Of a stretch of 64,000 nucleotides of DNA, positions 12,998-64,000 are shown one piece after another. The DNA is taken from NCBI GenBank assembly GCA_001004105.1, contig LCQK01000003.1, forward strand, positions 46,805 to 110,804, in the 5' to 3' direction. Position 1 is the first letter of the stretch. Each line of letters starts with the position of its first letter. The notes beneath the pieces are model-generated. The model was not told the DNA's origin. It searched no databases and worked only from the letters and a program-made list of their open reading frames with translations. Source of the stretch: Candidatus Jorgensenbacteria bacterium GW2011_GWB1_50_10 (GTDB lineage Bacteria > Patescibacteriota > Minisyncoccia > UBA6257 > GWB1-50-10). The position numbers and the translations under genes were made by a program.

Positions 12998-13110
12998 AAC
13001 GCGTGGTCGCGGTGAACGTGAACTGGAACGCCGAGAACGACGACTGGAACCTGAACGCCAACGGCTTGGACGACGACAGGTGGAATGACGGTAACTGCGT
13101 GTTCTCTCGC
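12998..13110 (+). repeat. DGR template repeat (TR)
   Basis: AAC-codon-rich 113-bp copy of VR; all VR differences map to A in this copy. Confidence 0.9.
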
Positions 13111-13125
13111 CGCTTACCTTTTATA

Positions 13126-13461: not shown

Positions 13462-13498
13462 TTCATTCCGTCGGGGGGGGGTTAGAGGACGGGAATTT

Positions 13499-18135: not shown

Positions 18136-18167
18136 AATTTATTTTGAATTTGGAAAGCCAAATTCTT

Positions 18168-19651
<1,484 letters not shown>

Positions 19652-21038: not shown

Positions 21039-21046
21039 CTTCAATG

Positions 21047-21596: not shown

Positions 21597-21605
21597 TTTA
21601 AGTTA

Positions 21606-22196: not shown

Positions 22197-22405
22197 TTGG
22201 CTACCCACGCCCTAATTTTGTAAGTGTTTCCGCGGCAACCCGCTTCGCCCACCGAGGGGTGTGCCTATTCGGCACACGCAGGTTGGTGGAGATTGACTAA
22301 AATTGTGTTAGTTCAAAATTTGGAAAGGTTCTCACGGCAAAATTAGAGCGGGGTACTCAATTTTATGTTAAAATTTAACCAAGGTTAAATTTTAATAAAA
22401 TTGGT

Positions 22406-24124
22406 ATGATAAACCTCCCTCCCGAAAAATTGAAAGATATTTTGGTAAAGCAGGGGCTTATTGACCCCGCTCTTTTTGATAATCTTCAAATTGAATCCCA
22501 GAGAAAAAGGCAAGACCTCGCGGATATTCTCATCTCGCAGGGCTTGGTCAATAAAGATTACCTTTATCTTCTAATCGCCCGGGCGCTTGGCGTGGAACGG
22601 GTTAATCTGGGAGTGATGAAAATAGACGAAAACATCCTTCGTTTGATTCCTGAAGACGCCGCCCGGCGCCGAAATGTGATTGTCTTCGGCCGGGAAGCCG
22701 ACGGCAGATTTCAAGTGGCGATGGATAACCCAACCGATTTAGAAACCATTGATTTTCTCCAGCTTCGTTTGGGCGGGCCCGTGAAACCGTATCTTGCGAC
22801 TGACGAAGATTTAAACCGCGGTTTTTCGCTTTACGAAAAACGCCTCACCCAGGATTTCAAGAAAATAATTGAGGAGAGTGTCAAAGAGTCGCTGCGCTCC
22901 AAAGCCAAGGGCGATTTAAAAGAAGCGGCCTCCGATTTGCCGATCGTCGCCATCGTTGACAATCTGATGGCTTACGCGCTCTCTTCCCGCGCTTCGGACA
23001 TTCACTTTGAGGTTTTAGACGATGGAGTTTTGGTTCGCTATCGGATTGACGGTGTGCTCCACGAGGTTATCAGGATGCCGAAGGAAATCCACGCTGCCAT
23101 TGTCGCCCGCATAAAGATTTTGGCAAGCCTGCGCGTTGACGAGCACTACCGCCCCCAAGACGGCCGCTTCCGCCATAAAATCGGCGACGAATTAGTGGTG
23201 GATGTCCGCGTCTCCATCATCCCAACTTTTTACGGCGAAAAGGTTGAGCTGCGGCTTCTAGCTGCCGCCCAGAAACCCCTATCGCTTTCCGAAATCGGCG
23301 CCTCCGAAGACACGGTAAAGGTTATTCGGGAAGCCATTAAAAAAAGCTACGGAATGGTTTTAATTTGCGGTCCGACTGGTTCCGGTAAAACGACCACGCT
23401 GTACTCCATTATGAACATTTTAAATAAGCCAGACGTGAACATCATTACCGTTGAAGACCCGATTGAGTACGACATGCGCTACGTAAATCAAGTGCAGGTG
23501 AATGTCCAGGCTGGCATTACTTTTGCCTCCGGCCTGCGTTCTCTTTTAAGACAGGACCCGAACATCATTATGGTCGGCGAAATCCGCGACTCGGAAACCG
23601 CCAACATCGGCGTACAGGCGGCCCTGACCGGCCACCTGATGCTTTCTAGTTTGCACACCAATGATGCCCCGACCGCCGTGCCGCGGCTTATGGATATGGG
23701 TATCCCACCGTTTCTCGTGGCCGCAGTTTTGAATGCCGTGAGCTCCCAACGCTTGGCCCGCCGGATTCATTTGGAGTGCATTGAATCATACGCGCCCGAG
23801 GCAAGCGTTCGTGCATCCATCAGCAAAACTCTAGAGGAAATCGGCGCCGACCAGAGCCAAGTCAGAATCCCCAAGATATTTTATCGGGGCCGGGGCTGCG
23901 CCGCCTGTAATCATTCCGGTTATTACGGCCGCATAGGTCTCTTTGAAACTTTAGACGTCACCGAAAACGTGAGGAAAATCATTATTGACAGGAATTTTAG
24001 TTTGGACAATTTGCGGAAGGTCGGTCGCGAAGAGGGGATGACGACGATTTTTGAAGACGGTTTGCGGAAGGTGGAGCGCGGCTTAACAACCATCGAAGAA
24101 TTATTTAGAGTTATAAGAGAGTAA
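22406..24124 (+). CDS. pilB: type IV pilus assembly ATPase PilB (GspE family)
   Basis: N-terminal GspII_E domain, Walker A GPTGSGKTTTLY, Asp box, His box, tetracysteine motif CAAC... Confidence 0.95.
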   Translation: MINLPPEKLKDILVKQGLIDPALFDNLQIESQRKRQDLADILISQGLVNKDYLYLLIARALGVERVNLGVMKIDENILRLIPEDAARRRNVIVFGREADGRFQVAMDNPTDLETIDFLQLRLGGPVKPYLATDEDLNRGFSLYEKRLTQDFKKIIEESVKESLRSKAKGDLKEAASDLPIVAIVDNLMAYALSSRASDIHFEVLDDGVLVRYRIDGVLHEVIRMPKEIHAAIVARIKILASLRVDEHYRPQDGRFRHKIGDELVVDVRVSIIPTFYGEKVELRLLAAAQKPLSLSEIGASEDTVKVIREAIKKSYGMVLICGPTGSGKTTTLYSIMNILNKPDVNIITVEDPIEYDMRYVNQVQVNVQAGITFASGLRSLLRQDPNIIMVGEIRDSETANIGVQAALTGHLMLSSLHTNDAPTAVPRLMDMGIPPFLVAAVLNAVSSQRLARRIHLECIESYAPEASVRASISKTLEEIGADQSQVRIPKIFYRGRGCAACNHSGYYGRIGLFETLDVTENVRKIIIDRNFSLDNLRKVGREEGMTTIFEDGLRKVERGLTTIEELFRVIRE

Positions 24125-24130
24125 AATTTT

Positions 24131-25342
24131 ATGCAATATCATTACATCGCATCGCAGCCGGACGGCAAGGTGTCTGAAGGTGACGTTGACGCCAAGGACG
24201 TTGCCGAAGTCCTGACGTATCTTACCTCGCATGGGCTTCGGCCGGTTTCCGTAAAGCCGATTGCGCAAATTTCCAAAAAGAAAAGGTTGGGTCTTTTTGG
24301 CGGGACCATTAATCTAACCGACCAGATATTCCTCTCAAAATATCTGGCGCTGATGCTCAAAATCGGCACAAGCTTATTGCAAGCTATTAATATCTTGGTT
24401 GAAGATTTTCAGAAATCGTCCGTGCGGGCTTTTTTAGTGGAAATCCGCTCCAACCTTGAAAAGGGCCGACCCTTTCATACAACCTTCGCCAAATATCCGA
24501 AAATCTTCAGCCAGGTCTACATTAATCTGGTGAAAGCCGGCGAGGCCTCCGGCAACCTGGAAAATGTTTTTGAAAACCTGACGGCATCTCTCTCTAAAGA
24601 AAAAATGCTCAAAGACCAGATGCGGAGCGCGCTCGTTTACCCGATTTTGCTTCTTGTTACTTCCGCACTGATTTTGGTGTTTCTCGTCACCTTTGCCCTG
24701 CCGAAAATAGCCGGCGTTTTTTTGGAATCGGGTTTTGAGCCGCCTCTTTTTTCAAGAGTTGTTTTTAGTATCGGCCTTTTCTTCGGCAAGTTCGGGATTC
24801 TTGTGATAGCTGCCGTCTTCGGCGGTGCGATTGCGCTTGTTGCGGCCTACCGTTCCTTGCTTTTGTTCAAAAAATTCGTCACCTCCGTCATAAGTGAAAT
24901 CCCCGTCATTAAAGACATTATCAGAAAAATTGCCCTCCAGCGTTTTGCCGCTACCCTTGCATCGCTCATTAAAGCCGGCGTGCCATTAACCAATGCTCTT
25001 GAAATTACTGCTGATGCCGCTGGCAACATTGAGTTGAAACAGGCGCTTTTGCGGATTTCTCGGGAAGGATTAATGAAAGGGCTTACCGTGGGCGATGCCT
25101 TTAAAAGGGAACCATTTTTCCCGCGAACCGTCGTTAATTTAGTCGCTATTTCCGAAAAAGCCGGTCATATTGAAGAGGTTTTGGAAACGCTTGCTGATTT
25201 CTACACTTCGGAAATTGATAGTTCCTTAAAGACGCTTGTTTCATTCCTCGAGCCCGCTCTTCTTCTTGTTATCGGTTTTATAATTGGCTTGATTGCCCTT
25301 GCTATAATAGTGCCTATTTACCAGCTTACCACCCAATTCTAA
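24131..25342 (+). CDS. pilC: type IV pilus inner-membrane platform protein PilC (GspF family)
   Basis: Two T2SS-F repeats, 403 aa. Confidence 0.9.
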   Translation: MQYHYIASQPDGKVSEGDVDAKDVAEVLTYLTSHGLRPVSVKPIAQISKKKRLGLFGGTINLTDQIFLSKYLALMLKIGTSLLQAINILVEDFQKSSVRAFLVEIRSNLEKGRPFHTTFAKYPKIFSQVYINLVKAGEASGNLENVFENLTASLSKEKMLKDQMRSALVYPILLLVTSALILVFLVTFALPKIAGVFLESGFEPPLFSRVVFSIGLFFGKFGILVIAAVFGGAIALVAAYRSLLLFKKFVTSVISEIPVIKDIIRKIALQRFAATLASLIKAGVPLTNALEITADAAGNIELKQALLRISREGLMKGLTVGDAFKREPFFPRTVVNLVAISEKAGHIEEVLETLADFYTSEIDSSLKTLVSFLEPALLLVIGFIIGLIALAIIVPIYQLTTQF

Positions 25343-26430
25343 TGAGGGGCTTTACTCTTATAGAAGTTTTAATAACGGTCGCAATTATTACAGCCGTTTC
25401 CGCGGCCGGTTATGTCGCGTTTTCCAAGTTCAAAGGTTCGCAAGCCGTTGAGCTCACAATGAACGAAATTACGGCCGTCATAAAGGACGTCCAAAAAAGA
25501 GCAGTGACACAGCAGGACGGCAAGCAATGGGGGCTCCGTTTCACTAATTCAACGTCAACCACGCACAGCTATCAGGTTTGGAGCGGTCCGAGCTATGCTT
25601 CGGGAACGATTAGCAGGACCTATTACCTCGGTCGCGGCACGCTCTTCGGCAACCCCGCCGACGATCTGAATGTAGACGAAATTTTCTCGGCGATAAGCGG
25701 GAAGCTCTTGGAGACAAGAGTCATTTCTTTAATAAATCGAAGAAAAGATGGTGTTGTCGGCGACATAATTCTTACTTCCCGGGGCGCGATTACAACGAGA
25801 AAAGAGAGCGGTCTTGTCGGCTATTGGCATTTTGACGAGAGTACAGCAACAACGACTTATGACGCTTCGGGGTTTGCCAATGCCGGCACGCTCACCAACG
25901 GTCCGGCATGGCAATCGGCGTCTAATTGCAAGGCGGGGACATGTTTGAGTTTTGACGGGACGAATGATTATGTGAATGTGATTGATTCAGCCTCACTCGA
26001 TATCACTGGCGCAATCACTGTTAGCGCTTGGGTATACGCGGATAGTTACCCCTCTACTTATCCAACGGTAGTGGCAAAAGGAAACTCCGCAAGCGCTTGG
26101 GAGCTTGACGTGAAGAATGATGGAACGATCGAATGGGAAGGGTTTATCGGTGGTACTCAAAGGATTTGCAATGGTGGCTCATTTAACCTTAACCAGTGGG
26201 TTTATATTGTAGGCCTATTTGATGGTAGCGACATGAAAATATTCGTTAATGGTTCAGAGGTGAAGTCATGTTCTTTCCCAGGGGTGTTAGGTACAAATAA
26301 TTCTGCCTTGGAAATCGGTTCCAGAACCAATGGAGGCGCCGTTTGGGACGGTTTTATTGATGGAGTCCGTATCTACAACAGCGCCTTGAGCGCCCAGGAA
26401 ATTTTGAATTTATATAATGATTTAAAATAA
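25342..26430 (+). CDS. prepilin-type N-terminal cleavage/methylation protein (minor pilin) with LamG-like domain
   Basis: MRGFTLIEVLITVAII...; LamG pattern GLVGYWHFDEST...LSFDGTNDYVNV...ITVSAWVY...VRIYNSALSAQEI. Confidence 0.8.
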   Translation: MRGFTLIEVLITVAIITAVSAAGYVAFSKFKGSQAVELTMNEITAVIKDVQKRAVTQQDGKQWGLRFTNSTSTTHSYQVWSGPSYASGTISRTYYLGRGTLFGNPADDLNVDEIFSAISGKLLETRVISLINRRKDGVVGDIILTSRGAITTRKESGLVGYWHFDESTATTTYDASGFANAGTLTNGPAWQSASNCKAGTCLSFDGTNDYVNVIDSASLDITGAITVSAWVYADSYPSTYPTVVAKGNSASAWELDVKNDGTIEWEGFIGGTQRICNGGSFNLNQWVYIVGLFDGSDMKIFVNGSEVKSCSFPGVLGTNNSALEIGSRTNGGAVWDGFIDGVRIYNSALSAQEILNLYNDLK

Positions 26431-26434
26431 ATTT

Positions 26435-27700
26435 ATGAGAAGGTTCTGGCGCGATATAAAAGGACAAAGTTTGATTGAAGTTTTAATCGGTTTGGCGATT
26501 GGTGCCGTTTTAATCGGCGCTGCGAGTTTGGGCGTTACTTTCATGCTTCGCTCTAGCGCCGCCAGTCAGAATGTTCAGATTGGAACGGGTCTTGCCCAAG
26601 ATTTGGTGGACAAGGCTCGTTCCGTATCGGCCGCCAAGTGGCAGGATATTTACCACCTCACCAAAGGAACGAGCACATCTTATTTTGTAAATGCTTTTGG
26701 CACGCAGCTTGTTGTTGTAGAAGGTCAGGAAGGCGTTATCAGCAATGAAAATACGAATGGTTTGGTCGGTTACTGGAAGTTTGATGAGGCGACGAGTACG
26801 GCGACTACTACGACCTTCGACGCTTCCGGAAAGTCCAACCACGGCACTCTCACGAGCGGCGTTTCAAGAGCTACCTCAACTTGTAAAGTTAGTTATTGTT
26901 TGGATTTTGATGGAGTGGATGATTATGTTGATTCCGGAAGCGGTTCAAGTTTGGATATTACTCAAAATGTAACACTCGTGTCGTGGGTTAAGTTGGATAC
27001 TTATACCTCGGGCGGCACTAACACTGACAGGGCAAGCATTGTGCAGAAGACGGGGCAATATTATATGACAGTGAATTCAGCAAACGGAACACTCGACGCC
27101 TTCTTTGGTGGGGTCACTGGTAGTCATACGCCTTCAAATTCTACAGTTTCATTGAATCAGTGGATGCACACCGCAATCACTTATGATGGTGCAAATATAA
27201 AATGGTATATAGACGGTGTTTTAGACAAAACATCGGCCGCGACCGGTACCATTACTAGTGATCCCCGAAGCGTTCGTATCGGCGGGGAACCGGCTTTTGG
27301 TCGTTTTCTGAACGGTTCCATTGACGAAGTCCGCGTCTACAACCGCGCTCTTTCCGCCGACGAAATCCAGCGGCTTTGGAATTCCGTGCCTTTCACGCAT
27401 TACTTTAACGTTGGAAACGTAAACCGCGATACGAACGGCAATATTGTTTCCTCCGGCGGAAATGAAGATCCTTCAACCCAAAAAATCACGGTGACTGTGC
27501 AGTGGCCGGGGAGCGGCAGTAATGTCGGTCAGATTCAAATTGTTGATTATTTAACCCGCTGGCAGAACCAAGTGTTTCAGCAAAGCGATTGGCTGGGTGG
27601 TTCTGGCCAAATAGGCCCGATTACCTTACCGAATTCTAAATACGACAGCGCGACGAGCGTTTCCAACCCCGCCGGTTCAATCAGAATTCAAGGACTATAA
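26435..27700 (+). CDS. pseudopilin-like protein with LamG-like domain
   Basis: KGQSLIEVLIGLAIGAVL N-terminus; GLVGYWKFDEAT...LDFDGVDDYVD...VRVYNRALSADEI. Confidence 0.75.
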   Translation: MRRFWRDIKGQSLIEVLIGLAIGAVLIGAASLGVTFMLRSSAASQNVQIGTGLAQDLVDKARSVSAAKWQDIYHLTKGTSTSYFVNAFGTQLVVVEGQEGVISNENTNGLVGYWKFDEATSTATTTTFDASGKSNHGTLTSGVSRATSTCKVSYCLDFDGVDDYVDSGSGSSLDITQNVTLVSWVKLDTYTSGGTNTDRASIVQKTGQYYMTVNSANGTLDAFFGGVTGSHTPSNSTVSLNQWMHTAITYDGANIKWYIDGVLDKTSAATGTITSDPRSVRIGGEPAFGRFLNGSIDEVRVYNRALSADEIQRLWNSVPFTHYFNVGNVNRDTNGNIVSSGGNEDPSTQKITVTVQWPGSGSNVGQIQIVDYLTRWQNQVFQQSDWLGGSGQIGPITLPNSKYDSATSVSNPAGSIRIQGL

Positions 27701-29727: not shown

Positions 29728-32076
29728 ATGTTTTATTTCATTTTAATAGCCGTTTGCGCCGCTCTTTTAATTTGGGGCGGCTGGTTTCTAAGAAAGCGTT
29801 TAAAATTACGCCATCACCTTGATGTTTTGGGGATGAAGCTGTATCTTGTGCGTCTCCCGAAGAGCGGAAAAGAAGGCAAGGACTTGAAACAGGAAATAAA
29901 TTTGTCCGAGCAGCTTTTTACGGCCCTCGCGAGTTTCGGTAAGCCATTTGTTTTTGAAATCGCCGTGCCGTACGTGGGCGAAGAGATTCATTTTTTTGTC
30001 GGCGTTCACCGCTCTTTCAGCGAGGCGTTAGTGCGCCAAATTCAAGCTATTTGGCCCGACGCCGATGTCCGCCCCACCGACGATTACAATATTTTCAATT
30101 ACTCGGGCCGGACCTTGGGCGCGAGCGTGGTTTTGAGCGAGAGATTTGTTTTGCCGGTCCGGACTTATGTCGAAGTCGGCGCTGACACGTTCCTGCCCTT
30201 TTTGGGCGCTTTCTCCAAAATCAGCGAGCTCGGCGAGGGCGGCGCCATTCAGTTCGTGATTCGGCGGGCCGAAAGAAGCCGTTATAAAAAAGAAATAAAT
30301 TCCGCTCTGAAGTTTTTGAAGAAAGGCGGCAGTTTGAGTGAAATTCTCAGTCACCCCCTTTCGCTTTCTTTGGAAGATGTTGGTAAAGTGCTCCACGGCG
30401 AAGAAAAATTAAAAAAAGGAAATTATATTCTCGATGAAGCGAGCATTAAAACGCTTGAAATCAAGCTCGCCAAACAGCTTTTTGAAGTGAATGTCAGGAT
30501 TTTTGCTTCGGGACCGAGCAATTTCAAGGCAGAGGAGATTTTCGGGGGACTCGCCGCCGGCTTTTCTCAATTTGGAGCGCTCCAACGTAATTCTTTTAAA
30601 GTCGTTCAGCCGAAAAACATCAAAGGTCTGGTTCACGAGTTTTCTTTCCGCGAATTTAATTCTAACGAAGCAATGGTTCTTACAAGCGAAGAATTGGCAA
30701 GTATTTTTCATTTCCCGACGGCTTTTACTGAAACGCCGAAAATCAAGGAATTGAAAGCTCGGGAGGCGACGCCGCCGGCGAACCTTCCCAAAAACGGCGT
30801 GATGTTGGGCCTTGCTTCTTTTCGGGGCGGGAGCGAGGAGGTAAAAATCACCGACGACGATCGGCGGCGCCATCTTTACCTTATCGGCCAGACCGGCACC
30901 GGCAAATCCAATTTGCTTCTTAATATGGTCTCCGACGACCTGCGGAACGGGAAGGGACTCGCTGTTTTGGACCCCCACGGCGATTTGGTGGAGGAAATTT
31001 TAGGGCTTATGCCGAGCGGAAGAATGAAGGATGTCGTCGTTTTTGACCCGGGCGACATTGAGCGGCCTCTGGGTTTAAACATGATTGAATACAATTTCAG
31101 CCGGCCGGAGGAGAAGACGTTTATCGTGAATGAAATGCAGAATATTTTCAACAAGCTTTTTACGGCTGAAACAATGGGACCGATGTTCGAGCAGTATATG
31201 CGCAACGCCCTGTTGCTTTTGATGGAGGATATGCAGAGCGACCCGGCGACCTTAATGGAAATTTCACGGGTTTTCACCGACTCCCTTTTTCGGAAAACAA
31301 AACTCACTCGGACCAAAAATCCGGCGGTCTATGATTTTTGGGAAAAGGAAGCAGTTAAAGCCGGCGGCGAGGCGGCACTCGCCAATATGACTCCCTACAT
31401 CACTTCCAAGTTCAATAATTTTACGGCGAACGATTTTATGCGCCCCATCATCGGCCAGGTTAAATCGGCTTTTAACTTCAGAGAATTGATGGACGACGGC
31501 AAGATCTTGCTCGTCAATTTGTCCAAAGGCAGAATCGGCGACATCAACGCCAATCTCTTGGGTATGATTATTACCGGCAAGATTTTGATGGCCGCGCTCT
31601 CAAGGGTGGACGTCCCCGAAGACAAAAGAAAAGATTTTTATCTCTACATCGACGAGTTCCAGAATTTCACGACCGATTCCATTGCCGTGATTTTGTCGGA
31701 AGCGCGGAAATACCGGCTGAACCTCGTGATTGCCCACCAGTTTATCGGCCAGCTTACCGAGAAAATAAGGGATGCGGTTTTTGGCAACGTCGGGTCGCTC
31801 GTTGCTTTCCGGGTCGGGGCGCAGGATGCCGAATTTCTAACGAAGCAGTTTGCGCCCGTCTTCAGCGAGCAGGACCTTTTGAACATTGATAATTTCAACG
31901 CCTACGTTAAACTTCTTATAAATGGGGAGACCTCAAAACCCTTTAATATCAAAACCGTGCCGGCGCCGAAGGGGGAAAGAAACCTAGCAGAGCGCATTAA
32001 AGAAAATTCCAGAAATTTTTACGGTCGGGGGCGCGCCGAGGTGGAAGAAGAAATATACAAGCGATTGAGAACTTAA
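29728..32076 (+). CDS. VirD4/TraG/TraD-like coupling-protein ATPase (fused form: N-terminal membrane/DUF region plus C-terminal TraG-D_C-like ATPase)
   Basis: Walker A GQTGTGKSN, Walker B FYLYIDEFQNF, IAHQFIGQL / VGSLVAFRVG motifs; N-region homologous to 60165-61556 and C-region to 62106-63587. Confidence 0.8.
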   Translation: MFYFILIAVCAALLIWGGWFLRKRLKLRHHLDVLGMKLYLVRLPKSGKEGKDLKQEINLSEQLFTALASFGKPFVFEIAVPYVGEEIHFFVGVHRSFSEALVRQIQAIWPDADVRPTDDYNIFNYSGRTLGASVVLSERFVLPVRTYVEVGADTFLPFLGAFSKISELGEGGAIQFVIRRAERSRYKKEINSALKFLKKGGSLSEILSHPLSLSLEDVGKVLHGEEKLKKGNYILDEASIKTLEIKLAKQLFEVNVRIFASGPSNFKAEEIFGGLAAGFSQFGALQRNSFKVVQPKNIKGLVHEFSFREFNSNEAMVLTSEELASIFHFPTAFTETPKIKELKAREATPPANLPKNGVMLGLASFRGGSEEVKITDDDRRRHLYLIGQTGTGKSNLLLNMVSDDLRNGKGLAVLDPHGDLVEEILGLMPSGRMKDVVVFDPGDIERPLGLNMIEYNFSRPEEKTFIVNEMQNIFNKLFTAETMGPMFEQYMRNALLLLMEDMQSDPATLMEISRVFTDSLFRKTKLTRTKNPAVYDFWEKEAVKAGGEAALANMTPYITSKFNNFTANDFMRPIIGQVKSAFNFRELMDDGKILLVNLSKGRIGDINANLLGMIITGKILMAALSRVDVPEDKRKDFYLYIDEFQNFTTDSIAVILSEARKYRLNLVIAHQFIGQLTEKIRDAVFGNVGSLVAFRVGAQDAEFLTKQFAPVFSEQDLLNIDNFNAYVKLLINGETSKPFNIKTVPAPKGERNLAERIKENSRNFYGRGRAEVEEEIYKRLRT

Positions 32077-52899: not shown

Positions 52900-53412
52900 G
52901 TGGCCAAGACATCAAGAGATGCAAGAAGACATATAAGGGCAATAAGTGAGTTTTTTGCTGCCGGGAAAGCTGTAACCGAAGCCGCAGTTAATGATTTTAT
53001 CGGCACCTACAAAAAGAGGAAATTCTTAAAGCAAAGTTTGCGCCGGCTAATTGAAAAGGGTTTGGTTGAAAAGAAAAATAACAAGTTTGTTCCGACTCTC
53101 GCTGGTATCAGGTTTTTTCGTTCAAACATTGAGAGATCGTTGAAACCAAAAAATTGGGATGGTAAGTGGTACCTTTTAAGTTTTGACGTTCCGGTTAAAC
53201 TGAACGTAAAGAGAGACTATTTAAGAAGGGTGCTTAAAAGTTATGATTTTTATCCGCTCCAAAAGAGCGTTTGGGTGGGCCCGAATAAATTCGGCGACGA
53301 CCTTTGGGAATTTGTCGTTCAAAAGGAACTTAATAAATATTGCCGGGTTATGGTGGTGAGCGTTTTAGAAGGGGATGAGGATTTAAAAAAGTATTTCAAA
53401 ATCGGGTTTTAA
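52900..53412 (+). CDS. PaaX-family-like protein (winged-helix N-terminus plus Cas2-like-fold C-terminal domain)
   Basis: WDGKWYLLSFDVP...RDYLRRVLKSYDFYPLQKSVWVGP resembles PaaX_C; GTG start 7 nt after TATAAT. Confidence 0.5.
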   Translation: MAKTSRDARRHIRAISEFFAAGKAVTEAAVNDFIGTYKKRKFLKQSLRRLIEKGLVEKKNNKFVPTLAGIRFFRSNIERSLKPKNWDGKWYLLSFDVPVKLNVKRDYLRRVLKSYDFYPLQKSVWVGPNKFGDDLWEFVVQKELNKYCRVMVVSVLEGDEDLKKYFKIGF

Positions 53413-53503: not shown

Positions 53504-55267
53504 ATGTCAGAAACGAGAATTTGCCAGAATTGCAAGCAACAATTCACGATTGAGCCGGACGATTTCGCGTTTTATAAAAAGATAAGCGTCCCGCCACCGA
53601 CGTGGTGCCCGGAGTGCAGGTTAGTGAGAAGGTTAATTGTTCGTAATGAACGGAGTTTGTATAGAAGAATCTGTGATCTTTGTGGAAAAGAGAAAATAAT
53701 GATGTTTTATCCTCAAAGTCCTTTCAAGGTATATTGCTACGAATGTTGGTTTGGCGATAACTGGAATCCAATGGGGTATGGGAAAGAATATGACTTTTCA
53801 CAGCCCTTTTTCGAACAGTTTAGTGATTTGCTCCATGTGGTACCGAGGCCGGGGATTCTAAAACAAGGATTCGCTATTGAGAGTGAATACACCAACCGAG
53901 TCAGCGAAATTAGAAATTGTTATCTTATTTTTGGCTCAACAGCTAGCGAAAACTGTTTTTACGGTTCGTGGGTAAATGATTCTAAAGAATGCGTTGACTG
54001 TTACAACCTCGGCAAATGCGAAAGATGTTATGACTGCACCGATTGTGTCGGTTGCTATAACCTTCAGTACTCTCGTGACTGCCATAGTTGCAGTAATTCT
54101 TATTTTCTTTTGAATTGCCGCAACTGCGAGAGTTGCTTTGGTTGCACGAATCTCCGCAATAAAAGCTACTGTGTTTTTAATAAACAATACGGCAAGGAGG
54201 AATATCAAAAACTACTCGAGGAACACAATTTGAAAAGCTCAGCCGCTATCAAAAGACTCCAGTCCCGGTTCATTTCGGAGCGTTCCAAGCATATTGTGCC
54301 GTCAATAATCCAACATCACAGTACGGATGTAAGCGGTAACTGGATTGAAGAATCCAAGAATGTTCATTACAGCTTCAACTGCCGAAATGTCGAGGATGGT
54401 AAGTACGTACTGGCGGCAGTAATTGCAAAAGATGTAATGGATTATGCTCATTTCGGACGCGGCGTTGAACGTATTTATGATTCAATCAACATTGGCCGCC
54501 AAGCCTCATCCGTCTTTTTTAGCAATGAAAGCTGGGACCAATCTTCAAATTTGCAGTATTGCATGAATTGCCGAGGTTCACAGAACCTTTTCGGGTGCAT
54601 CGGAGTTCGTAACAAAAGTTACTGTATCTTGAACAGGGAATATACCAAAGAAGAATACGAGAAGCTGGTTCCCCGCATTATTGAGCACATGAATACTATG
54701 CCCTACGCCGACAAGAAAGATAGGGTATACAAGTACGGCGAATTTTTCCCGCCGGAAATAACGCCATTCGCTTATAACGAGTCCCTCTCCCAAGAATTTT
54801 TTCCTCTAACAAAAGAAAGAGCGTCAGAACTCGGGTACCGCTGGAAAGATGAAGAGAATCGGAGCTACAAGATAACTGTAAAAAATAACGAAATTCCTGA
54901 TACTATTCGACTTGTTTCCGACGCGATACTCGATGATGTCATTGGCTGCGAACATGGTGGAAAATGCAACGAACAGTGCACGACGGCTTTTAAAATTGTT
55001 CCTCAAGAGCTTAATTTTTATAGACAATTTAATATTCCCCTTCCAAATCTTTGTCCCAACTGCCGTCATTATCAGAGATTAAAACAAAGAAATCCCCTAA
55101 AGCTTTGGCACAGAAAATGTATGTGTGATTACCAGGTTTATAAAAATACGGTGAAGCACGTTCATCATCCGGAAGGAAAGTGCCCGAACGAATTTAAAAC
55201 GTCCTACGCCCCCGAGAGGCCGGAAATCGTCTACTGCGAGCAGTGTTATAATTTCGAGGTAGTATGA
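53504..55267 (+). CDS. cysteine-rich repeat protein (587 aa, many CxxC motifs, Zn-ribbon-like N- and C-terminal modules)
   Basis: N-term CQNCKQQFTIEPDDFAFYKKISVPPPTWCPECR; central CVDCYNLGKCERCYDCTDCVGCYNL...CRNCESCFGCTNLRNKSYC; internal duplication (NKSYCVFNKQYGKEEYQKL / NKSYCILNREYTKEEYEKL); C-term ...LCPNCRHYQRL; TATAAT 12 nt upstream. Confidence 0.6.
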   Translation: MSETRICQNCKQQFTIEPDDFAFYKKISVPPPTWCPECRLVRRLIVRNERSLYRRICDLCGKEKIMMFYPQSPFKVYCYECWFGDNWNPMGYGKEYDFSQPFFEQFSDLLHVVPRPGILKQGFAIESEYTNRVSEIRNCYLIFGSTASENCFYGSWVNDSKECVDCYNLGKCERCYDCTDCVGCYNLQYSRDCHSCSNSYFLLNCRNCESCFGCTNLRNKSYCVFNKQYGKEEYQKLLEEHNLKSSAAIKRLQSRFISERSKHIVPSIIQHHSTDVSGNWIEESKNVHYSFNCRNVEDGKYVLAAVIAKDVMDYAHFGRGVERIYDSINIGRQASSVFFSNESWDQSSNLQYCMNCRGSQNLFGCIGVRNKSYCILNREYTKEEYEKLVPRIIEHMNTMPYADKKDRVYKYGEFFPPEITPFAYNESLSQEFFPLTKERASELGYRWKDEENRSYKITVKNNEIPDTIRLVSDAILDDVIGCEHGGKCNEQCTTAFKIVPQELNFYRQFNIPLPNLCPNCRHYQRLKQRNPLKLWHRKCMCDYQVYKNTVKHVHHPEGKCPNEFKTSYAPERPEIVYCEQCYNFEVV

Positions 55268-60164: not shown

Positions 60165-61556
60165 ATGCTTAAAAATCTCTTCGGCCACATCCTCGACGTT
60201 ATTGAAGAACTTTTCAAGCAGGAGGAGGTTTGGGTTTTTTTGTTTCTGATACTGCTCGGCGGGGCTTTAATTCTGTTTTTGCCCATAAAATACATCATCT
60301 GGGCGCTTTTGCCTTTTATAATTTTTGTGATTATTTTCTCACTCACCCGCTCGCTCTGGCTTTTCTGGCGGCAAGAAATGTACAAGCAAAAACATTTTAA
60401 GTGCGTGCTTTTAGAGCTCCGAATCCCGCGGCAGATTAAGAAAACGCCGGAGGCGATGGAACAGGTTTTGGCGGCGATGCATTCGCTACGGAACACGGCC
60501 AATAATCTTGGAGAAAAATATTGGGACGGTGAAATAACGCGTTGGTTCTCTCTAGAAGTTGTAAGTTTTGGCGGCGAAGTTCACTTCTATATCCGGGTTT
60601 ATGAAAAACAAAGAAACCTGCTTGAAGCCGCCCTTTTCTCTTATTATTCGGATATTGAAGTGGTGGAAGTGGAAGATTATGTTAATACATTTCCGCGGGA
60701 TTTACCCGAGGTGTACCGGCGGGATATGGACCTGTGGGGCAGCGAGATGGTCTTGAGGAAAGAAGACCTTTTCCCCATCAAAACTTACCCTTCTTTTGAA
60801 GCGGAGCTGGAAGAAAGACAGAACGACCCGATGTCCACCTTTTTGGAGGTTTTAGGCAAAGTTAAGCCCAGTGAAGTTGTCGGCATCCAAATTTTAATTG
60901 CCCCGGGTCTGGATGACTGGGATAAAAAATGGGAACCCCTTGTAAATAAATTAAAAGAACCAAAAACCAAAAAAGAGGAGAAGAAAGGCGCCGAGGGGCA
61001 AATGGAAAGTTTTGCGCGGTTTATTGCCCGGTCGCCGGTGGAAACCGACGTCTTGAAAGCCGTTGAAGAGAACCTTTCTAAGCCCGCTTTTAATACTTTA
61101 GTTCGTTTTATCTATCTCTCGCCCAAAAATATTTTTTATGACAGTTTTGCCCGCCGCGGCTTATCTGGCGCTTTCAATCAATACTCAACCCTCCATCTGA
61201 ACGGTTTTGTGCAAAATTACAAAATGAGTACGAGAACGCTTATTTGGCACTGGCCTCACCTTTTTCCCAGGTGGCGCAATGAATATAGAAAACAGCGACT
61301 CCTCTTCACATATCTCCGAAGAGAAGTGCCGCCCGAGACCTGGATGGGCCGGTTCATGACATCATATCCGTTAAACTTTAATTTTACCTCCCATCGTTTT
61401 CATCTGAACATAGAGGGAGCGGCTACTGTTTTTCATCCGCCGAGCTTAATCGTTCTTACCGAGCCGCATATCAGGCACTTGGAGAGCCGCCGCATGGGTC
61501 CGCCGTCCGGTTTGCCGATTTTCGGCGAAGACGAGGAGGTGGAAAAATACAAGTAG
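60165..61556 (+). CDS. membrane protein homologous to the N-terminal half of the fused coupling-protein (29728-32076); split form
   Basis: 2 N-terminal TM helices; LLELRIPRQIKKTPEAMEQVLAAMHSL...EVVSFGGEVHFYIRVYE aligns with LVRLPKSGKEG...EIAVPYVGEEIHFFVGVHRS. Confidence 0.65.
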   Translation: MLKNLFGHILDVIEELFKQEEVWVFLFLILLGGALILFLPIKYIIWALLPFIIFVIIFSLTRSLWLFWRQEMYKQKHFKCVLLELRIPRQIKKTPEAMEQVLAAMHSLRNTANNLGEKYWDGEITRWFSLEVVSFGGEVHFYIRVYEKQRNLLEAALFSYYSDIEVVEVEDYVNTFPRDLPEVYRRDMDLWGSEMVLRKEDLFPIKTYPSFEAELEERQNDPMSTFLEVLGKVKPSEVVGIQILIAPGLDDWDKKWEPLVNKLKEPKTKKEEKKGAEGQMESFARFIARSPVETDVLKAVEENLSKPAFNTLVRFIYLSPKNIFYDSFARRGLSGAFNQYSTLHLNGFVQNYKMSTRTLIWHWPHLFPRWRNEYRKQRLLFTYLRREVPPETWMGRFMTSYPLNFNFTSHRFHLNIEGAATVFHPPSLIVLTEPHIRHLESRRMGPPSGLPIFGEDEEVEKYK

Positions 61557-62081
61557 ATGAATTTACTGCAGTCAATCATCAATGCCGTTTCCGATTTTCC
61601 CTGGGTGCGCACTTTTTGGAGCGTCCGTTTCATTTTCATTGTTTTGAACATAATTCTCGCCGTTCTTTTCGTTTACGTTTTCATCCGGGCCCTGAAATAC
61701 CGGCCGAAGTTTTACTTCGATTCGGAAGCACTCGCCAAAAGAAAGAAAATCATAAGAGAAGGCGCGAAGTGGGGAGATAAGTGGAAATATCTTTTGGAAA
61801 AAGCCCGAGCGCATCCGCCGCAGTCGCTCTTTATGGGCGTGGTTGAAGCCGACGGTTTGGTGGATAGCGTTTTGAAAAAAATAGGCGTGCCTGGGGAACA
61901 CATGGCCGACCGCCTGGAGCGGCTTGCCGGCCGGAACTTGAAGACCATTGAGCGCCTCTGGAGAGCGCATAAAGTCCGCAATGACCTGGCTCACACGCCG
62001 GGCTTCACGCTTGATTCACACGACGCTGAGGAGATTTTGGGGGATTACGAAGCATTCCTAAAAGAAATAGGAGCGATATAG
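61557..62081 (+). CDS. hypothetical membrane-anchored protein (174 aa) between split coupling-protein halves
   Basis: ATG overlaps upstream stop (TAGATG); one TM helix. Confidence 0.5.
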   Translation: MNLLQSIINAVSDFPWVRTFWSVRFIFIVLNIILAVLFVYVFIRALKYRPKFYFDSEALAKRKKIIREGAKWGDKWKYLLEKARAHPPQSLFMGVVEADGLVDSVLKKIGVPGEHMADRLERLAGRNLKTIERLWRAHKVRNDLAHTPGFTLDSHDAEEILGDYEAFLKEIGAI

Positions 62082-62105: not shown

Positions 62106-63587
62106 ATGCCTAAGCCTGGAAAAATACAAATAATCCGTTATGCGCCGCCGCCGCCGGACCTGCCGGTCTACGGCCGCATTGACCCGAAAGACGTTTCTTT
62201 CATCGGCCGGACCAATTACGTGGCGGCCCTGGAAGAGAAAAAATTCATCTTCGGTATCAAGCGCCACGACCGGAGGCGGCACCTTTACGTCATCGGCAAA
62301 AGCGGTGTCGGCAAGTCCAAGGCGCTGGAGCTTTTAATCCGGCAGGATATTGCTTTCGGGCACGGCCTTTGCCTCATTGACCCGCACGGCGACGTGATTG
62401 AGGCGACTTTGGATTTTGTGCCGCAAAGCCGCGTGGAGGACGTGGTGATTATTGACCCGTCGGATTCGGAGCATCCAGTTTCTTTTAATCCTCTTCAGAA
62501 TGTTGACCCGTTTTTCAAACATCAGCTGACTCAAGGGCTGATTGAGGTGATGGAGAAGCAGTTCGGCGCAAACTGGACGCCGCGCCTGGAGCATGTTTTC
62601 CGTTTCACTTGCCTTGCTCTTTTGGATTATCCTCACGGCACGATGCGGGGGATGATTTCCATGCTCACCGACCGCAATTACCGGCAAAAAGTCATTGAAT
62701 ACATCGGCGACGATATGGTCAAGCGTTTCTGGGCCATTGAATTCGCCGACTGGTCGGAGAAATTCGACACCGACGCTATCATCCCGCTCGTGAACAAGCT
62801 CGGCCAGTTCCTTTCCGACCCGATGCTCCGGAATATCTTCGGCCAGAAAGAAAATAAGATTGATTTGGAAGAACTGATGAACAAAAAGAAAATTATTTTG
62901 ATTAACCTTTCTAAGGGCCGGCTCGGCGAGGAAAATTCCAGTTTTTTCGGCTCCATGTTCATCACCAAAATCAAACAGGCGGGCATGGCCCGGGCTAAGA
63001 TACCCGAGTCGGCGCGGCACGATTTTTATCTTTATGTTGACGAGTTTCAGAACGTTGTGACTGAAACTTTCGAAAATTTGCTGACCGAAGCGAGAAAATA
63101 CGGTCTTTGCATGACTATTGCCCATCAGTACCTAGGTCAGCTTCTGCCGAAAGTGAAAGCCGCAGTTTTGGGCAATGTCGGCAGCCTGATTGTTTTCCGG
63201 GTTGGCGGTGAGGACGCGGAGACGCTGGAGCCAGAAATGGCGCCACTTTTCAAAAACAAAGACATGATTAACCTCGGCATGCAGGAGTTTTACATCAAAA
63301 TGATAATCGACGGCGAGTCCTACGACCCGTTCTCGGCGGAAACCTTGAAAATATTGCCCTCACCCCACGGTTCGCTCAAAAAGGAAATCATCGAGGCCTC
63401 GCGCCGGAAATATTCCATTCCCGCCGATGCCGCCAAAAAACTCATTGAAGAAGAAGAGTCAACGATTATCAGGAGCGCCCAGGAAAAAGCCATTATTACC
63501 GGCGGCAAGGATAAAAAAGACCTGCCTGCCGGCAGGCAGGAAAGTGAAGAAAGCGACGCCGCCAAAATGGAAGAGCCACTCATATAG
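62106..63587 (+). CDS. VirD4/TraG-like coupling-protein ATPase domain protein (split form C-terminal half)
   Basis: Walker A GKSGVGKSK, Walker B FYLYVDEFQNV, IAHQYLGQL, VGSLIVFRVG; C-terminal tail with palindrome-encoded DLPAGRQE. Confidence 0.8.
   Translation: MPKPGKIQIIRYAPPPPDLPVYGRIDPKDVSFIGRTNYVAALEEKKFIFGIKRHDRRRHLYVIGKSGVGKSKALELLIRQDIAFGHGLCLIDPHGDVIEATLDFVPQSRVEDVVIIDPSDSEHPVSFNPLQNVDPFFKHQLTQGLIEVMEKQFGANWTPRLEHVFRFTCLALLDYPHGTMRGMISMLTDRNYRQKVIEYIGDDMVKRFWAIEFADWSEKFDTDAIIPLVNKLGQFLSDPMLRNIFGQKENKIDLEELMNKKKIILINLSKGRLGEENSSFFGSMFITKIKQAGMARAKIPESARHDFYLYVDEFQNVVTETFENLLTEARKYGLCMTIAHQYLGQLLPKVKAAVLGNVGSLIVFRVGGEDAETLEPEMAPLFKNKDMINLGMQEFYIKMIIDGESYDPFSAETLKILPSPHGSLKKEIIEASRRKYSIPADAAKKLIEEEESTIIRSAQEKAIITGGKDKKDLPAGRQESEESDAAKMEEPLI
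63521..63540. repeat. 20-bp perfect palindrome CCTGCCTGCCGGCAGGCAGG (copy, in-frame in C-terminal tail of coupling-protein ATPase)
   Basis: Exact repeat; encodes LPAGRQ. Confidence 0.9.
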
Positions 63588-63630: not shown

Positions 63631-63936
63631 ATGGTTTTAATTTACACTACCTGCAAAGACGTGGAACAGGCGAAAAAGCTGGGGCAAACGCTCGTGGAAA
63701 AGAAACTCGCCGCCTGCGTCAATGTTTGGCCCTTGAATACCATGTACTTCTGGGAGGGGAAGCTTACTGATGACACCGAGGCGGCACTTCTCATAAAGAC
63801 GAACGAGCCGAAGATTGCCGAGGTTGAGAGTTTCATTTTGAAGAATCACTCTTATTCCACCCCTTTTGTCGGGTCGGTTCTTGTTCACCGTTTGAATCGC
63901 GAATACAAAGAATGGATGGGAACGGTGCTGGCTTAA
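63631..63936 (+). CDS. cutA: divalent-cation tolerance protein CutA
   Basis: CutA1 pattern ...AACVNV.P..S.Y.WEGK...E..L..KT... Confidence 0.8.
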   Translation: MVLIYTTCKDVEQAKKLGQTLVEKKLAACVNVWPLNTMYFWEGKLTDDTEAALLIKTNEPKIAEVESFILKNHSYSTPFVGSVLVHRLNREYKEWMGTVLA

Positions 63937-64000
63937 GAAGCTGTCAAAACTGTAAGCAAGAATTCCGAATTGAGCCGGAAGATTTCGATTTTTATGAAAA
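63934..64000 (+). CDS. 5' fragment of a second cysteine-rich repeat protein (paralog of 53504-55267), continues beyond window
   Basis: Reads (R)SCQNCKQEFRIEPEDFDFYEK, matching N-terminus CQNCKQQFTIEPDDFAFYKK. Confidence 0.45.

Follow-up and report, generated by a model that had tools for sequence, protein, structure and literature searches.

The 64,000-nucleotide stretch of DNA analyzed here, referred to as the window, contains a cysteine-rich gene, F1, whose product belongs to a protein family not described before and not covered by curated databases, solved structures, or the literature. Arrays of its paralogs are a fixed part of a gene cluster comprising the genes for a DUF8128 membrane protein, a small transmembrane (TM) protein, a T4CP-like ATPase, and, optionally, CutA. 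Judged from gene order, the family is probably functionally tied to the DUF8128/ATPase motor, and we estimate a probability of roughly 35% that its members serve as dedicated partner subunits on the cytoplasmic side of this membrane-anchored, coupling-protein-like motor. The F1 gene and the predicted domains of its product are located as follows:

53504 to 55267, + strand: F1, the target gene, with an ATG start and an open reading frame (ORF) of 587 aa
53504 to 53788, + strand: N-terminal module A (residues 1 to 95), zf_Tbcl finger, basic helix, and CxxC-x17-CxxC finger
53894 to 54223, + strand: β-solenoid half 1 (residues 131 to 240), built from 12-residue coils
54329 to 54697, + strand: β-solenoid half 2 (residues 276 to 398), a Cys-poorer duplicate of half 1
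54698 to 54943, + strand: α/β domain X (residues 399 to 480), acidic
54944 to 55267, + strand: C-terminal module A′ (residues 481 to 587), aligning with module A, basic

The F1 protein has a mass of approximately 66 kDa and shares 50 to 62% identity with full-length homologs. It contains 39 cysteines, i.e., 6.6% of all residues, whereas the pooled fraction in the other 47 window ORFs of at least 150 aa is 0.65%, with 3.7% in the next richest ORF. The high cysteine content reported in an earlier note on this DNA was confirmed, and all strings quoted there are present. The same note had described the center as packed with CxxC and CxC motifs; F1 has 13 CxxC motifs, including a CxxCxxCxxCxxC run at residues 172 to 184, but its sole CxC (C539-M-C541) is sited in the C-terminal module and not in the center. 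The proposed inspection of cysteine spacing also uncovered the x17 spacing in both terminal modules. The recommended search for a signal peptide found none in F1, nor was a TM segment found (maximum KD19, 0.86); F1 is a soluble, cytoplasmic-type protein.

Two internal duplications are evident in F1, both colinear and also kept across family alignments. One relates the two ends of the protein, where a similar module had been noticed before: residues 8 to 82 align with residues 490 to 582 with 30% identity (pairwise E value of 9e-15, calculated for Cys-rich segments with composition correction off). The other, previously listed as an internal repeat, turned out to be far longer than noted and aligns residues 131 to 240 with residues 279 to 395 with 33% identity (E value of 1e-18, likewise for Cys-rich segments and without composition correction).

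An AlphaFold model of F1 based on 123 diverse sequences displayed high confidence, with a pLDDT of 90.8 and a pTM of 0.91, and superseded an earlier run with 30 close homologs (pLDDT, 68.8), in which the Cys-rich center was poor. In this model, the domains follow one another in the order double zinc finger, β-solenoid, β-solenoid, α/β domain, and double zinc finger. The first solenoid half ends with the motif FGC.NLRNK.YC.FN.QY.KEEY, followed by a helix; the second features a strand pattern, with pLDDT values above 90 for residues 330 to 400. Domain X, for which a Pfam search gave no match, harbors the highly conserved motif YGEFFP...SPFAYNET.AQE.FPL and has a family median pI of 4.5, the corresponding value for module A′ being 8.7. 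The idea of a DNA mimic was not supported, the net charge being mild (family median, −6). The C terminus is predicted as a folded finger (pLDDT > 90) and stops 6 residues past the last cysteine. A Cys-laddered solenoid of 12-residue coils capped by treble-clef pairs is an architecture without earlier description.

The Zn-ribbon-like appearance of the termini, also pointed out previously, can be specified further, as each of them is predicted to consist of a treble-clef pair combining a zf_Tbcl finger with a CxxC-x17-CxxC finger. The zf_Tbcl site of module A is formed by C7, C10, C35, and C38, which are 95 to 99% conserved, and its second finger follows the pattern C57-x2-C60-x17-C78-x2-C81; the module also contains a basic helix (CR..RR..RNER.LY.R). 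The cysteines of this second site are lost together in roughly half of the members (phi, 0.99). The predicted sites of module A′ are C482/C492/C517/C520 and C539/C560/C578/C581, with a conservation of 76 to 100% and co-variation phi values of 0.78 to 0.92. The second finger of module A′ shows the spacing C560-x17-C578-x2-C581, with a plain CxxC as the first knuckle in short variants, and an insert carrying C541, H552, and H555 is missing in 25 to 28% of members. Because of this high conservation (summarized as 95 to 100% for zinc-site cysteines) and unit-wise co-variation, the terminal cysteines are read as four predicted structural zinc sites, five in most members. Sites of the Zn(Cys)4 type are generally found in intracellular proteins.

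Profile searches returned PF13451 (E value, 1.6e-4; 22.0 bits; threshold, 24) and PF23477 (E value, 1.4e-5; 25.2 bits; threshold, 27) from Pfam for module A, as well as TIGR04272 (16.4 bits; threshold, 36) from NCBIfam, and precomputed PF23477 matches are present on some family members. Module A is 32 to 33% identical to stand-alone 92-aa zinc-ribbon proteins, and tblastn matched it to a bona fide member with 32% identity (E value, 8e-4). Stand-alone proteins of the zf_Tbcl PF13451 and PF23477/TIGR04272 type (e.g., WP_187028406 of Pusillibacter faecalis and those of Methanosarcina mazei) resemble each terminal module of F1: both fingers are present and follow each other in the same order, the FY...P..C..CR..R helix is shared, and the x17 spacing is matched exactly. 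They differ in being widespread and only about 40 to 95 aa long, whereas in F1 two copies cap a body of approximately 400 aa made up of the solenoid and the α/β domain, and the Pfam scores of F1 are slightly under the gathering thresholds of these families. For small CxxC-x17-CxxC proteins of M. mazei, zinc binding was demonstrated by ICP-MS (PMC12704099). A LIM domain, suggested by a borderline profile match of module A to CRP1 LIM (E value, 9e-4), was ruled out by the finger spacing: LIM domains obey the pattern C-x2-C-x16-23-H-x2-C-x2-C-x2-C-x16-21-C-x2-C/H/D with contiguous fingers, whereas in module A 18 residues separate the two fingers (C38 to C57), the first finger has an x24 spacing, and both are all-Cys.

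The cysteines in the center of F1 occupy the inward positions 1, 4, 7, and 10 of the 12-residue coils, where Ser, Val, and Leu also occur. Individually, they are 24 to 95% conserved, with replacement by Ser, Val, or Leu across the family, and their pairwise phi values do not exceed 0.46, compared with 0.78 to 0.99 for the cysteines of the predicted zinc sites. Since they are independent of one another and interchangeable with Ser, Val, and Leu, the central cysteines line the narrow core of the solenoid rather than forming obligate metal clusters or disulfides; the multi-metal-binding or disulfide-rich scaffold envisaged for the center in the earlier note is thus replaced by a β-solenoid. A related alternative, a multi-metal, Fe-S, sulfur, or redox scaffold whose inward cysteines would bind a row of metal ions or clusters or act as a thiol buffer, would profit from the fact that the solenoid stays Cys-rich family-wide even though single positions shift (median, 19 cysteines; range, 9 to 37), from the CxxC run of half 1, and from the occurrence of CutA1 beside family genes in at least seven loci, which would fit a metal-related role. 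The conservation and phi values given above make this alternative improbable, as does solenoid half 2, which has the same fold with few cysteines; moreover, neither a CxxCxxCxxxC(P) nor a CxxxCxxC motif is conserved, and ferredoxin and radical-SAM profiles of Pfam, NCBIfam, and the PDB gave no match.

Solenoid geometry also recalls left-handed β-helix enzymes, i.e., hexapeptide acyltransferases or γ-carbonic anhydrases, to which zinc fingers would have been added as accessories. This assignment is very improbable, as no Hexapep match was found in Pfam, the coil register is 12 rather than 18, F1 lacks the hexapeptide consensus and shows neither a conserved His nor a catalytic polar cluster, the invariant non-Cys residues being mostly aromatic or structural, and the structural matches, with TM-scores of about 0.1, reflect geometry common to solenoids in general. 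Thin β-solenoids such as the Tenebrio molitor antifreeze protein (TmAFP; 1ezg), the ryegrass ice-binding protein (3ult), and curli CsgA (8c50) share 2 to 11% sequence identity with F1. The 12-residue coils with a Cys ladder are a feature common to TmAFP and F1; in contrast to TmAFP, the F1 cysteines do not co-vary (phi of at most 0.46) and hence are not obligate disulfides, and neither TxT ice-binding arrays nor a signal peptide was found in the F1 sequence. Unlike in the thin β-solenoids, the solenoid of F1 is embedded between zinc-finger modules in a cytoplasmic-type context.

When clustered at 50% identity, the family falls into approximately 4,700 groups, practically all of which are from Parcubacteria. 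In line with the earlier note, whose author did not recognize F1, no well-characterized family lays claim to it, and profile and fold searches (Pfam, NCBIfam, PDB, and Foldseek) gave no confident assignment. Specifically, whole F1 and seven sub-segments matched nothing in Pfam, NCBIfam, PHROGs, and PADLOC except the sub-threshold zinc-finger entries and, weakly, phrog_15341, a PHROG of unknown function (E value, 2.6e-4); a sequence profile search with whole F1 found no relatives among solved structures; Foldseek of the F1 model against PDB and BFVD found nothing at E values up to 1e-3; and neither the family nor DUF8128 was described in the literature searched. Three further observations were followed up. 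A phage or plasmid origin had come into question because one homolog was once labelled "putative phage protein," and tblastn speaks against it, as only residues 3 to 82 were matched in 50,697 phage and 72,556 plasmid records, namely, by small zinc-ribbon proteins. A weak tblastn match at 39380 to 39141, which might have indicated a third copy in the window, lies antisense within rpoB and is spurious. A fusion to an NYN nuclease, a possible hint at RNA binding, is real (NYN E value, 1e-16) but was given little weight because it is a singleton among the best 120 matches.

Downstream of F1, the window contains the following cluster:

60165 to 61556, + strand: DUF8128 membrane protein, 463 aa (PF26449, precomputed Pfam)
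61557 to 62081, + strand: small single-TM protein, 174 aa, kept between the DUF8128 and ATPase genes
62106 to 63587, + strand: soluble VirD4/TraG/HerA-like (T4CP-like) P-loop ATPase of type 1, 493 aa (Pfam domains)
63631 to 63936, + strand: CutA1 gene (Pfam CutA1; E value, 4.5e-30)
63912 to 64000, + strand: start of the paralog F2, clipped by the window end, 570 aa on a longer identical contig

The type-1 ATPase features the Pfam domains T4SS-DNA_transf, TrwB_AAD_bind, DUF87, and TraG-D_C; its match to the VirD4-like CD1115 model of NCBIfam has an E value of 4.8e-14, with a score far below the cut-off, and its best 120 homolog clusters are 77 to 89% identical. The DUF8128 protein and the small TM protein possess about one to two TM helices each. 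In four of four loci picked from ATPase homologs alone, the genes for DUF8128, the TM protein, and the ATPase are followed by one to six family genes, and the order in the window (DUF8128, TM protein, ATPase, CutA, F2) matches. Of 81 loci anchored on the family instead, 26 had the ATPase gene directly upstream in the same orientation, compared with a chance adjacency of about 3%, a value calculated for approximately 2 T4CP genes (PMC12102498) among an assumed 900 or so genes in each genome. No ATPase gene was present within 6 kb in the other 55 loci, and F1 itself lies approximately 7 kb upstream of the ATPase. In at least seven loci (including L010, L025, L030, L080, L088, and L089), CutA1 separates the ATPase from the first family gene, and SecDF, DnaJ/DnaK, and CutA also recur as neighbors of the family. 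A natural fusion of DUF8128 with a T4CP-like ATPase is encoded in the window by the ORF at 29728 to 32076. Furthermore, a type-2 ATPase, a paralog that flanks the arrays, carries a zf_Tbcl_2 (CxxC-x17-CxxC) finger with an E value of 2.7e-15, over the Pfam threshold. Long ATPase variants were also considered as fusions with TM174/DUF8128 proteins; their extra length corresponds to a C-terminal finger and a disordered tail. The link to the motor is suggested because of the gene order and the one shared zinc-finger domain; gene order is widely kept in small genomes, so that neighbors need not be functional partners.

The N terminus of F2, SCQNCKQEFRIEPEDFDFYEK, is 71% identical to F1 over 21 aa. 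A paralog with the N-terminal module had been correctly placed at the window edge; for its start, ATG 63912, which overlaps cutA by 25 nt and is so called on the longer identical contig, is likelier than the position 63934 given previously. On this contig F2 is trailed by F3 to F6. The term "multi-copy family" used in the earlier note therefore understates the situation, as at least six paralogs are located within approximately 20 kb of the genome, amounting to about 10.5 kb in roughly 1 Mb. The comparison of copy number and neighborhood that it had called for revealed co-directional arrays of up to 6 to 7 paralogs, with 1 to about 7 copies per locus, and recurrent DUF8128/ATPase neighbors. 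Adjacent genes are no more than 100 nt apart in 54 of 64 pairs, and many overlap by 4 nt. For 134 of 139 copies the closest relative is found in another genome (median identity of 60% versus 44% within the locus), pairs from the same locus never exceed 61% identity, and 41 of 50 arrays are devoid of a repeated subfamily. By these sequence criteria, the array paralogs are ancient and individually conserved, and because they are ancient, a recent arms-race expansion was ruled out.

Ancient, length-uniform, operon-tight paralogs, each of them conserved, could also be the subunits of a hetero-oligomer, and the large genome share of the family would suit a hetero-oligomeric polymer or scaffold with no relation to the ATPase, i.e., a cytoplasmic filament or lattice of the bactofilin or curli kind formed by stacked or bundled solenoids, the linkage then reflecting synteny. 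We regard this as unlikely: a copy number of 1 to about 7 per locus sits poorly with a hetero-oligomer of fixed composition, other domains cap the ends of the solenoid in the compact model (pTM, 0.91), which disfavors end-to-end stacking, and the ATPase adjacency in all four unbiased loci as well as the finger common to the type-2 ATPase also speak against it.

As partner subunits of the motor, the family members would use the rigid solenoid as a strut or scaffold and the two terminal zinc-finger modules as bivalent docking elements, which may bind either the motor or a ligand handled by it (nucleic acid or protein); different paralogs might supply distinct specificities or build a hetero-oligomer. 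Ancient paralogs, few repeated subfamilies, tight packing, and Zn(Cys)4-type sites speak for such a role rather than for fast-evolving cargo. By analogy, a point against it is that paralog arrays beside a secretion or assembly ATPase usually encode substrates (pilins, T7SS substrates) and not adaptors.

The latter analogy leads to translocated cargo, in which case the family members would be substrates of the motor recognized via a terminal zinc-finger module and passed across the membrane in unfolded form, either out of the cell or into a host cell, where they would refold vectorially as β-solenoids. DUF8128, the TM protein, and the ATPase would then form a minimal protein translocase, the Cys ladders would perhaps oxidize outside, and the exported proteins would either be effectors, working inside the host cell, or assemble into a structure outside or between cells, such as a cell-to-cell appendage. 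The arrays indeed come directly after the gene for a T4CP-like ATPase that has TraG-D_C and AAD-type domains, and arrays in such a position commonly encode the substrates of the ATPase, as at T7SS EssC loci and in pilin arrays. Moreover, proteins that leave the cell unfolded and acquire their structure only after export (autotransporters, RTX) classically adopt the β-solenoid fold, the family has a conserved, basic C-terminal module, and patescibacterial T4CP homologs are mostly orphan (PMC12102498). Despite these points, the cargo interpretation is doubtful. Strong purifying selection over the full length and the retention of paralog subfamilies across candidate phyla are unlike host-exposed effectors; each protein has four or five predicted sites of the Zn(Cys)4 type; and the C terminus is predicted as a folded finger, not a disordered signal, with no match to known T4CP signal domains (e.g., XVIPCD, BID) in profile searches with F1. 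In addition, DUF8128 and the small TM protein have only about one or two TM helices each, and no VirB4, VirB6, or VirB8-type families were found among the genes within 10 kb in L083 and L086 to L089 or among the annotated window genes.

The arrangement resembles T4CP (VirD4/TraG/TraD) systems with their relaxases or Xanthomonas X-Tfe effectors, which bind VirD4 through a C-terminal domain, and by analogy T7SS EssC loci with substrate arrays, in that a hexameric-type ATPase of the FtsK/HerA/T4CP superfamily with AAD and TraG-D_C domains is encoded beside clients sharing a terminal module. It differs from them in that the ATPase is soluble and accompanied by separate DUF8128 and small TM partners, and in that VirB4, VirB6, VirB8, and relaxase genes are absent nearby. 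The putative clients, as judged from their sequences, are uniform, ancient, and conserved paralogs with folded zinc-finger termini, whereas the effectors of T4CP systems are diverse and have disordered or XVIPCD-type signals. With the pilin and pseudopilin arrays of type IV pili and the T2SS, the cluster shares the gene logic, in which genes for a membrane component and an ATPase are joined by ancient paralogs arrayed in one direction. In contrast to pilins, the F1 family has neither a hydrophobic N-terminal helix nor a prepilin signal, is about four times larger, and is predicted to bind zinc, and the accompanying ATPase is of the T4CP/HerA branch rather than the PilB/GspE branch.

Few bacteria are as abundant and as poorly understood as the Parcubacteria. 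Their genomes measure about 0.6 to 1 Mb, and in the one analyzed here this family takes up at least 1%. Pfam/InterPro could define it as a clear new family. If the cargo interpretation were true, a new secretion route and a new class of effectors or fibers underlying the episymbiotic lifestyle would have been found. In a 2025 survey, 5,713 VirD4-like coupling proteins were reported for 2,918 Patescibacteria genomes, only 148 of them near a T4SS (PMC12102498). Being huge, lineage-specific, encoded directly behind such ATPases, and connected to one ATPase type by a common zinc finger, the family described here is a candidate partner for the orphan VirD4-like ATPases of the Patescibacteria.

The F1 gene, a member of the cysteine-rich protein family analyzed here, occupies positions 53504 to 55267 on the plus strand, starts with ATG, and encodes 587 residues, as the earlier note had it. 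The protein contains 39 cysteines (6.6%) and 13 CxxC motifs and is as cysteine-rich as claimed; the remaining 47 window ORFs that reach 150 residues have a pooled value of 0.65%, and the second-richest ORF reaches 3.7%. The similar termini described before align colinearly (residues 8 to 82 with 490 to 582; 30% identity, pairwise E value of 9e-15), and the internal repeat proved to be the tail of a far longer duplication (residues 131 to 240 with 279 to 395; 33% identity, E value of 1e-18).

No curated model in Pfam, NCBIfam, PADLOC, or PHROGs claims F1. For the whole protein, Pfam gave a subthreshold match to zf_Tbcl_2 only, NCBIfam a weak match to CxxC-x17-CxxC only, PADLOC no match, and PHROGs one weak match to a family of unknown function; a profile search against all PDB sequences gave no match. 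None of these searches placed F1 confidently in a well-characterized family, in agreement with the earlier note, which had recognized none. In a segment-wise scan, each terminal module, previously called zinc-ribbon-like, was predicted to be a pair of treble-clef fingers, the first corresponding to zf_Tbcl (PF13451; E value of 1.6e-4) and the second to zf_Tbcl_2, i.e., CxxC-x17-CxxC (PF23477; E value of 1.4e-5), both just under the Pfam threshold, and the approximately 400 residues between the modules gave no match. When annotated phages and plasmids were searched with tblastn, matches were confined to residues 3 to 82; the matched products are small stand-alone proteins (about 92 residues), named "zinc-ribbon domain containing," with exactly one module each. 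The terminal modules appear to belong to the small-protein family that combines zf_Tbcl with CxxC-x17-CxxC, or to be very closely related to it. In small proteins of Methanosarcina mazei, the CxxC-x17-CxxC finger binds zinc as determined by ICP-MS (PMC12704099).

AlphaFold was used to predict the structure of F1. Because a first model, based on 30 close homologs, had low quality in the cysteine-rich center, a second alignment of 123 diverse representatives was used, and the resulting model was confident throughout (pLDDT of 90.8, pTM of 0.91).

Segments of F1 in the second AlphaFold model
Residues 1 to 95, finger pair
Between finger pair and first solenoid, helical linker
About residues 131 to 240, β-solenoid 1
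Between the two solenoids, helices
About residues 276 to 398, β-solenoid 2
Residues 399 to 480, acidic α/β domain
Residues 481 to 587, second finger pair

A zinc knuckle stands near the start of the protein, at residue 7, and neither a transmembrane segment nor a signal peptide, the latter a check proposed in the earlier note, was found. Foldseek searches with the model against PDB and BFVD returned nothing at an E value of ≤1e-3; the termini alone resemble phage "putative zinc-ribbon domain" proteins. The sequence of the first solenoid half consists of 12-residue coils starting at residues 139, 151, and so on up to 223, with Cys, Ser, Val, or Leu at coil positions 1, 4, 7, and 10; the likeness of the solenoid to antifreeze-type helices with 12-residue coils is confined to geometry. 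Set beside this pattern, the idea that F1 is a hexapeptide-type enzyme is very improbable.

Conservation and covariation of the cysteines were computed on an alignment of 297 family sequences. C7, C10, C35, and C38 are conserved at 96 to 98% and C539, C560, C578, and C581 at 99%; C60, C78, and C81 of the second N-terminal site disappear together in about half of the family sequences (phi of 0.99); C492, C517, and C520 covary with phi values of 0.78 to 0.92. Judged from the alignment, the terminal cysteines thus behave as zinc-site ligands. The solenoid cysteines, in contrast, are 24 to 95% conserved, mostly replaced by Ser, Val, or Leu, and statistically independent of one another (phi of ≤0.46), while their total stays high across the family (median of 19, range of 9 to 37). 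This core-lining behavior fits small residues along a very narrow core. The multimetal or disulfide-rich center suggested earlier was not supported, since such variable and independent cysteines do not match Fe-S sites, disulfide pairs, or metal tetrads of an obligate kind, and a metal or redox scaffold is accordingly improbable.

A word-indexed search yielded at least 7,738 family clusters at 90% identity. Full-length matches are 50 to 62% identical to F1, are annotated as "hypothetical," and nearly all carry Parcubacteria labels (Jorgensen-, Lipton-, Staskawicz-, Portnoy-, Nomura-, and Giovannonibacteria, Paceibacterota, and Minisyncoccia). When 1.84 billion representatives were searched exhaustively with a profile, the result was 4,697 clusters at an E value of ≤1e-3 and 1,992 at ≤1e-30, mostly of 550 to 600 residues. 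The family is essentially confined to Parcubacteria; since their gene context is of the CPR type, members from metagenome-assembled genomes labeled "Saccharibacteria," "Burkholderiales," or "Gammaproteobacteria" are probably mislabeled.

At least 596 family loci were found in a scan of GTDB species genomes, and 53 of 81 retrieved loci contain arrays of two to seven full-length, co-oriented copies that lie no more than 6 kb from one another. The multicopy character proposed for F1 was borne out, its genome carrying at least six copies with 38 to 54% mutual identity, F2 to F6 of which begin at the window edge. F2 is a true paralog; its start, formerly placed at 63934, more likely lies at window position 63912, the equivalent of the ATG with which F2 begins on L083, a longer metagenomic contig otherwise identical to the window. 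There, F2 encodes 570 residues and its start overlaps cutA. L083 also carries a 97-residue ORF without matches between F2 and F3 and, past the right end of the window in the F4-F5 gap (17335 to 17997 of L083), three small genes for products of 68 residues (weak UPF0150/HicB-like match), 62 residues, and 86 residues, which look like an inserted toxin-antitoxin module. Upstream of F1 by 91 nt, a gene at 52900 to 53412 encodes a 170-residue protein that combines a winged-helix region at its N terminus with a PaaX_M (Cas2-like) domain. In loci L086 and L089, the corresponding stretch between UvrC and the FAD-oxidase lacks both this gene and F1, which suggests that the two were inserted in a lineage-specific manner.

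For 134 of 139 copies, the closest relative resides in another genome (median identity of 59.6% versus 44.3% within the locus), identity between two copies of one locus never rises above 61%, and 41 of 50 arrays lack a repeated subfamily. Adjacent copies are separated by at most 100 nt in 54 of 64 cases, many of them 4-nt overlaps. The copies are ancient, and their pattern is that of subfunctionalized subunits or isoforms; a recent arms-race expansion was rejected because of these old, cross-genome relationships. A hetero-oligomeric scaffold independent of any motor would also accommodate such subunits, and we consider it unlikely in view of the gene neighborhood.

When all flanking ORFs were clustered, the dominant nonfamily neighbor was a P-loop ATPase of about 490 residues, present in 26 of 81 loci, a count limited by the 6-kb flanks, and nearly always located directly upstream of and co-oriented with the family genes. 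In the recurrent order, SecD, SecF, and a sigma70_r4/HARE-HTH protein come first, followed by a membrane protein with DUF8128 (about 460 residues), a single-TM protein (about 172 residues), the ATPase, and the array, with CutA1 or DnaJ optional between the last two; the window from 56910 to its end shows exactly this order. CutA1 (divalent-ion tolerance protein, PII-like) lies at 63631 to 63936 in the window and in the same slot in L010, L025, L030, L080, L088, and L089; in other lineages, DnaJ takes the slot and DnaK/GrpE lie upstream.

The window ATPase (62106 to 63587; type 1) matches T4SS-DNA_transf, TrwB_AAD_bind, DUF87, and TraG-D_C in Pfam and, with scores far under the cutoffs, VirD4-like/TraD models in NCBIfam; it has no TM segments and is extremely conserved (77 to 89% identity across the best 120 clusters). 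For a reciprocal test, four ATPase homologs were picked solely by lineage and the length of their contigs. Each of the four loci showed DUF8128, the TM protein, the ATPase, optionally CutA, and then one to six family genes verified by BLASTP. The arrays are physically coupled to this cluster. A second ATPase paralog (type 2; 560 to 800 residues, about 45% identical) often brackets arrays and carries, directly after the motor domain, a zf_Tbcl_2 finger above threshold (E value of 2.7e-15), the same finger as in the family termini, followed by a long disordered, low-complexity tail in which an L-x-D-L-G-I-E-F motif and the C-terminal endings are conserved.

Loci with type 2 ATPases
19504 to 21474 of L087
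L007, L030, L033, L055, L063, L064, L065, L066, L078, L080, L081, and L088

Another ORF of the window (29728 to 32076; 782 residues) is a natural fusion. Its membrane-anchored N-terminal part is DUF8128-like and aligns colinearly with the DUF8128 protein (E value of 1e-6), and its C-terminal part is a T4CP-like paralog of the type 1 ATPase (37% identity, E value of 3e-91). DUF8128 and the ATPase therefore belong to a single membrane-anchored machine. No family genes lie near the fusion ORF, which adjoins a GtrA-like gene and lies downstream of a type IV pilus cluster (20499 to 27700) with several pilin-like ORFs and PilB at 22406 to 24124 (T2SSE; E value of 1.9e-117). Two adjacent paralogous ORFs of that cluster (20499 to 21038 and 21102 to 21596) contain 3.4 to 3.7% cysteine and have no Pfam match. 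Farther left lie a complete 16S rRNA gene (18166 to 19651), with no 23S or 5S rRNA called by Rfam across the 64-kb window, so that the rRNA genes appear unlinked, and a diversity-generating retroelement (12054 to 14482). The latter comprises a reverse transcriptase (13499 to 14482; RVT_1 E value of 9.7e-27) and a 140-nt repeat pair, the variable copy at 12632 to 12771 (3′ end of ORF 12054 to 12749) and the template copy at 12999 to 13138; over the first approximately 112 nt, all 15 mismatches have A in the template copy and C, G, or T in its variable counterpart.

A functional link of the family to the DUF8128/ATPase motor is fairly probable. Tentatively, with a probability of roughly one in three, the family proteins would be cytoplasmic partner subunits of the motor, in which the solenoid would serve as a rigid strut and the finger pair at either end as a docking element; the paralogs would differ in specificity or coassemble. 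This reading is suggested by the Zn(Cys)4 sites, the lack of an export signal, purifying selection over the whole length, the ancient subfunctionalized paralogs, operon-type packing, and the absence of nearby channel genes. The main rival, translocation of the family proteins as cargo of the motor, draws on the fact that gene arrays following an ATPase usually encode substrates and that the β-solenoid is the classic fold of proteins exported unfolded, but high conservation, a C terminus predicted to be folded, and the missing channel make it rather unlikely. A full-length family member preceded by an N-terminal NYN (PIN-like nuclease) domain (11803 to 14202 of L087) may represent a rare fusion or else an artifact of gene calling or assembly; no second such fusion occurs among the best 120 matches, and as a singleton it carries little weight for function.

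A 2025 survey of 2,918 Patescibacteria genomes counted 5,713 VirD4-like T4CP homologs, of which no more than 148 were near virB4, and left open whether they were "exapted for other functions" (PMC12102498). No paper describing the family or DUF8128 was found. The gene logic is like that of loci combining a T4CP with its substrates and that of pilin arrays, but each comparison lacks defining features. Since the whole protein and its gene cluster are without a described counterpart, we rate them outside known kinds, and the family represents a well-defined unknown rather than a demonstrated new mechanism.
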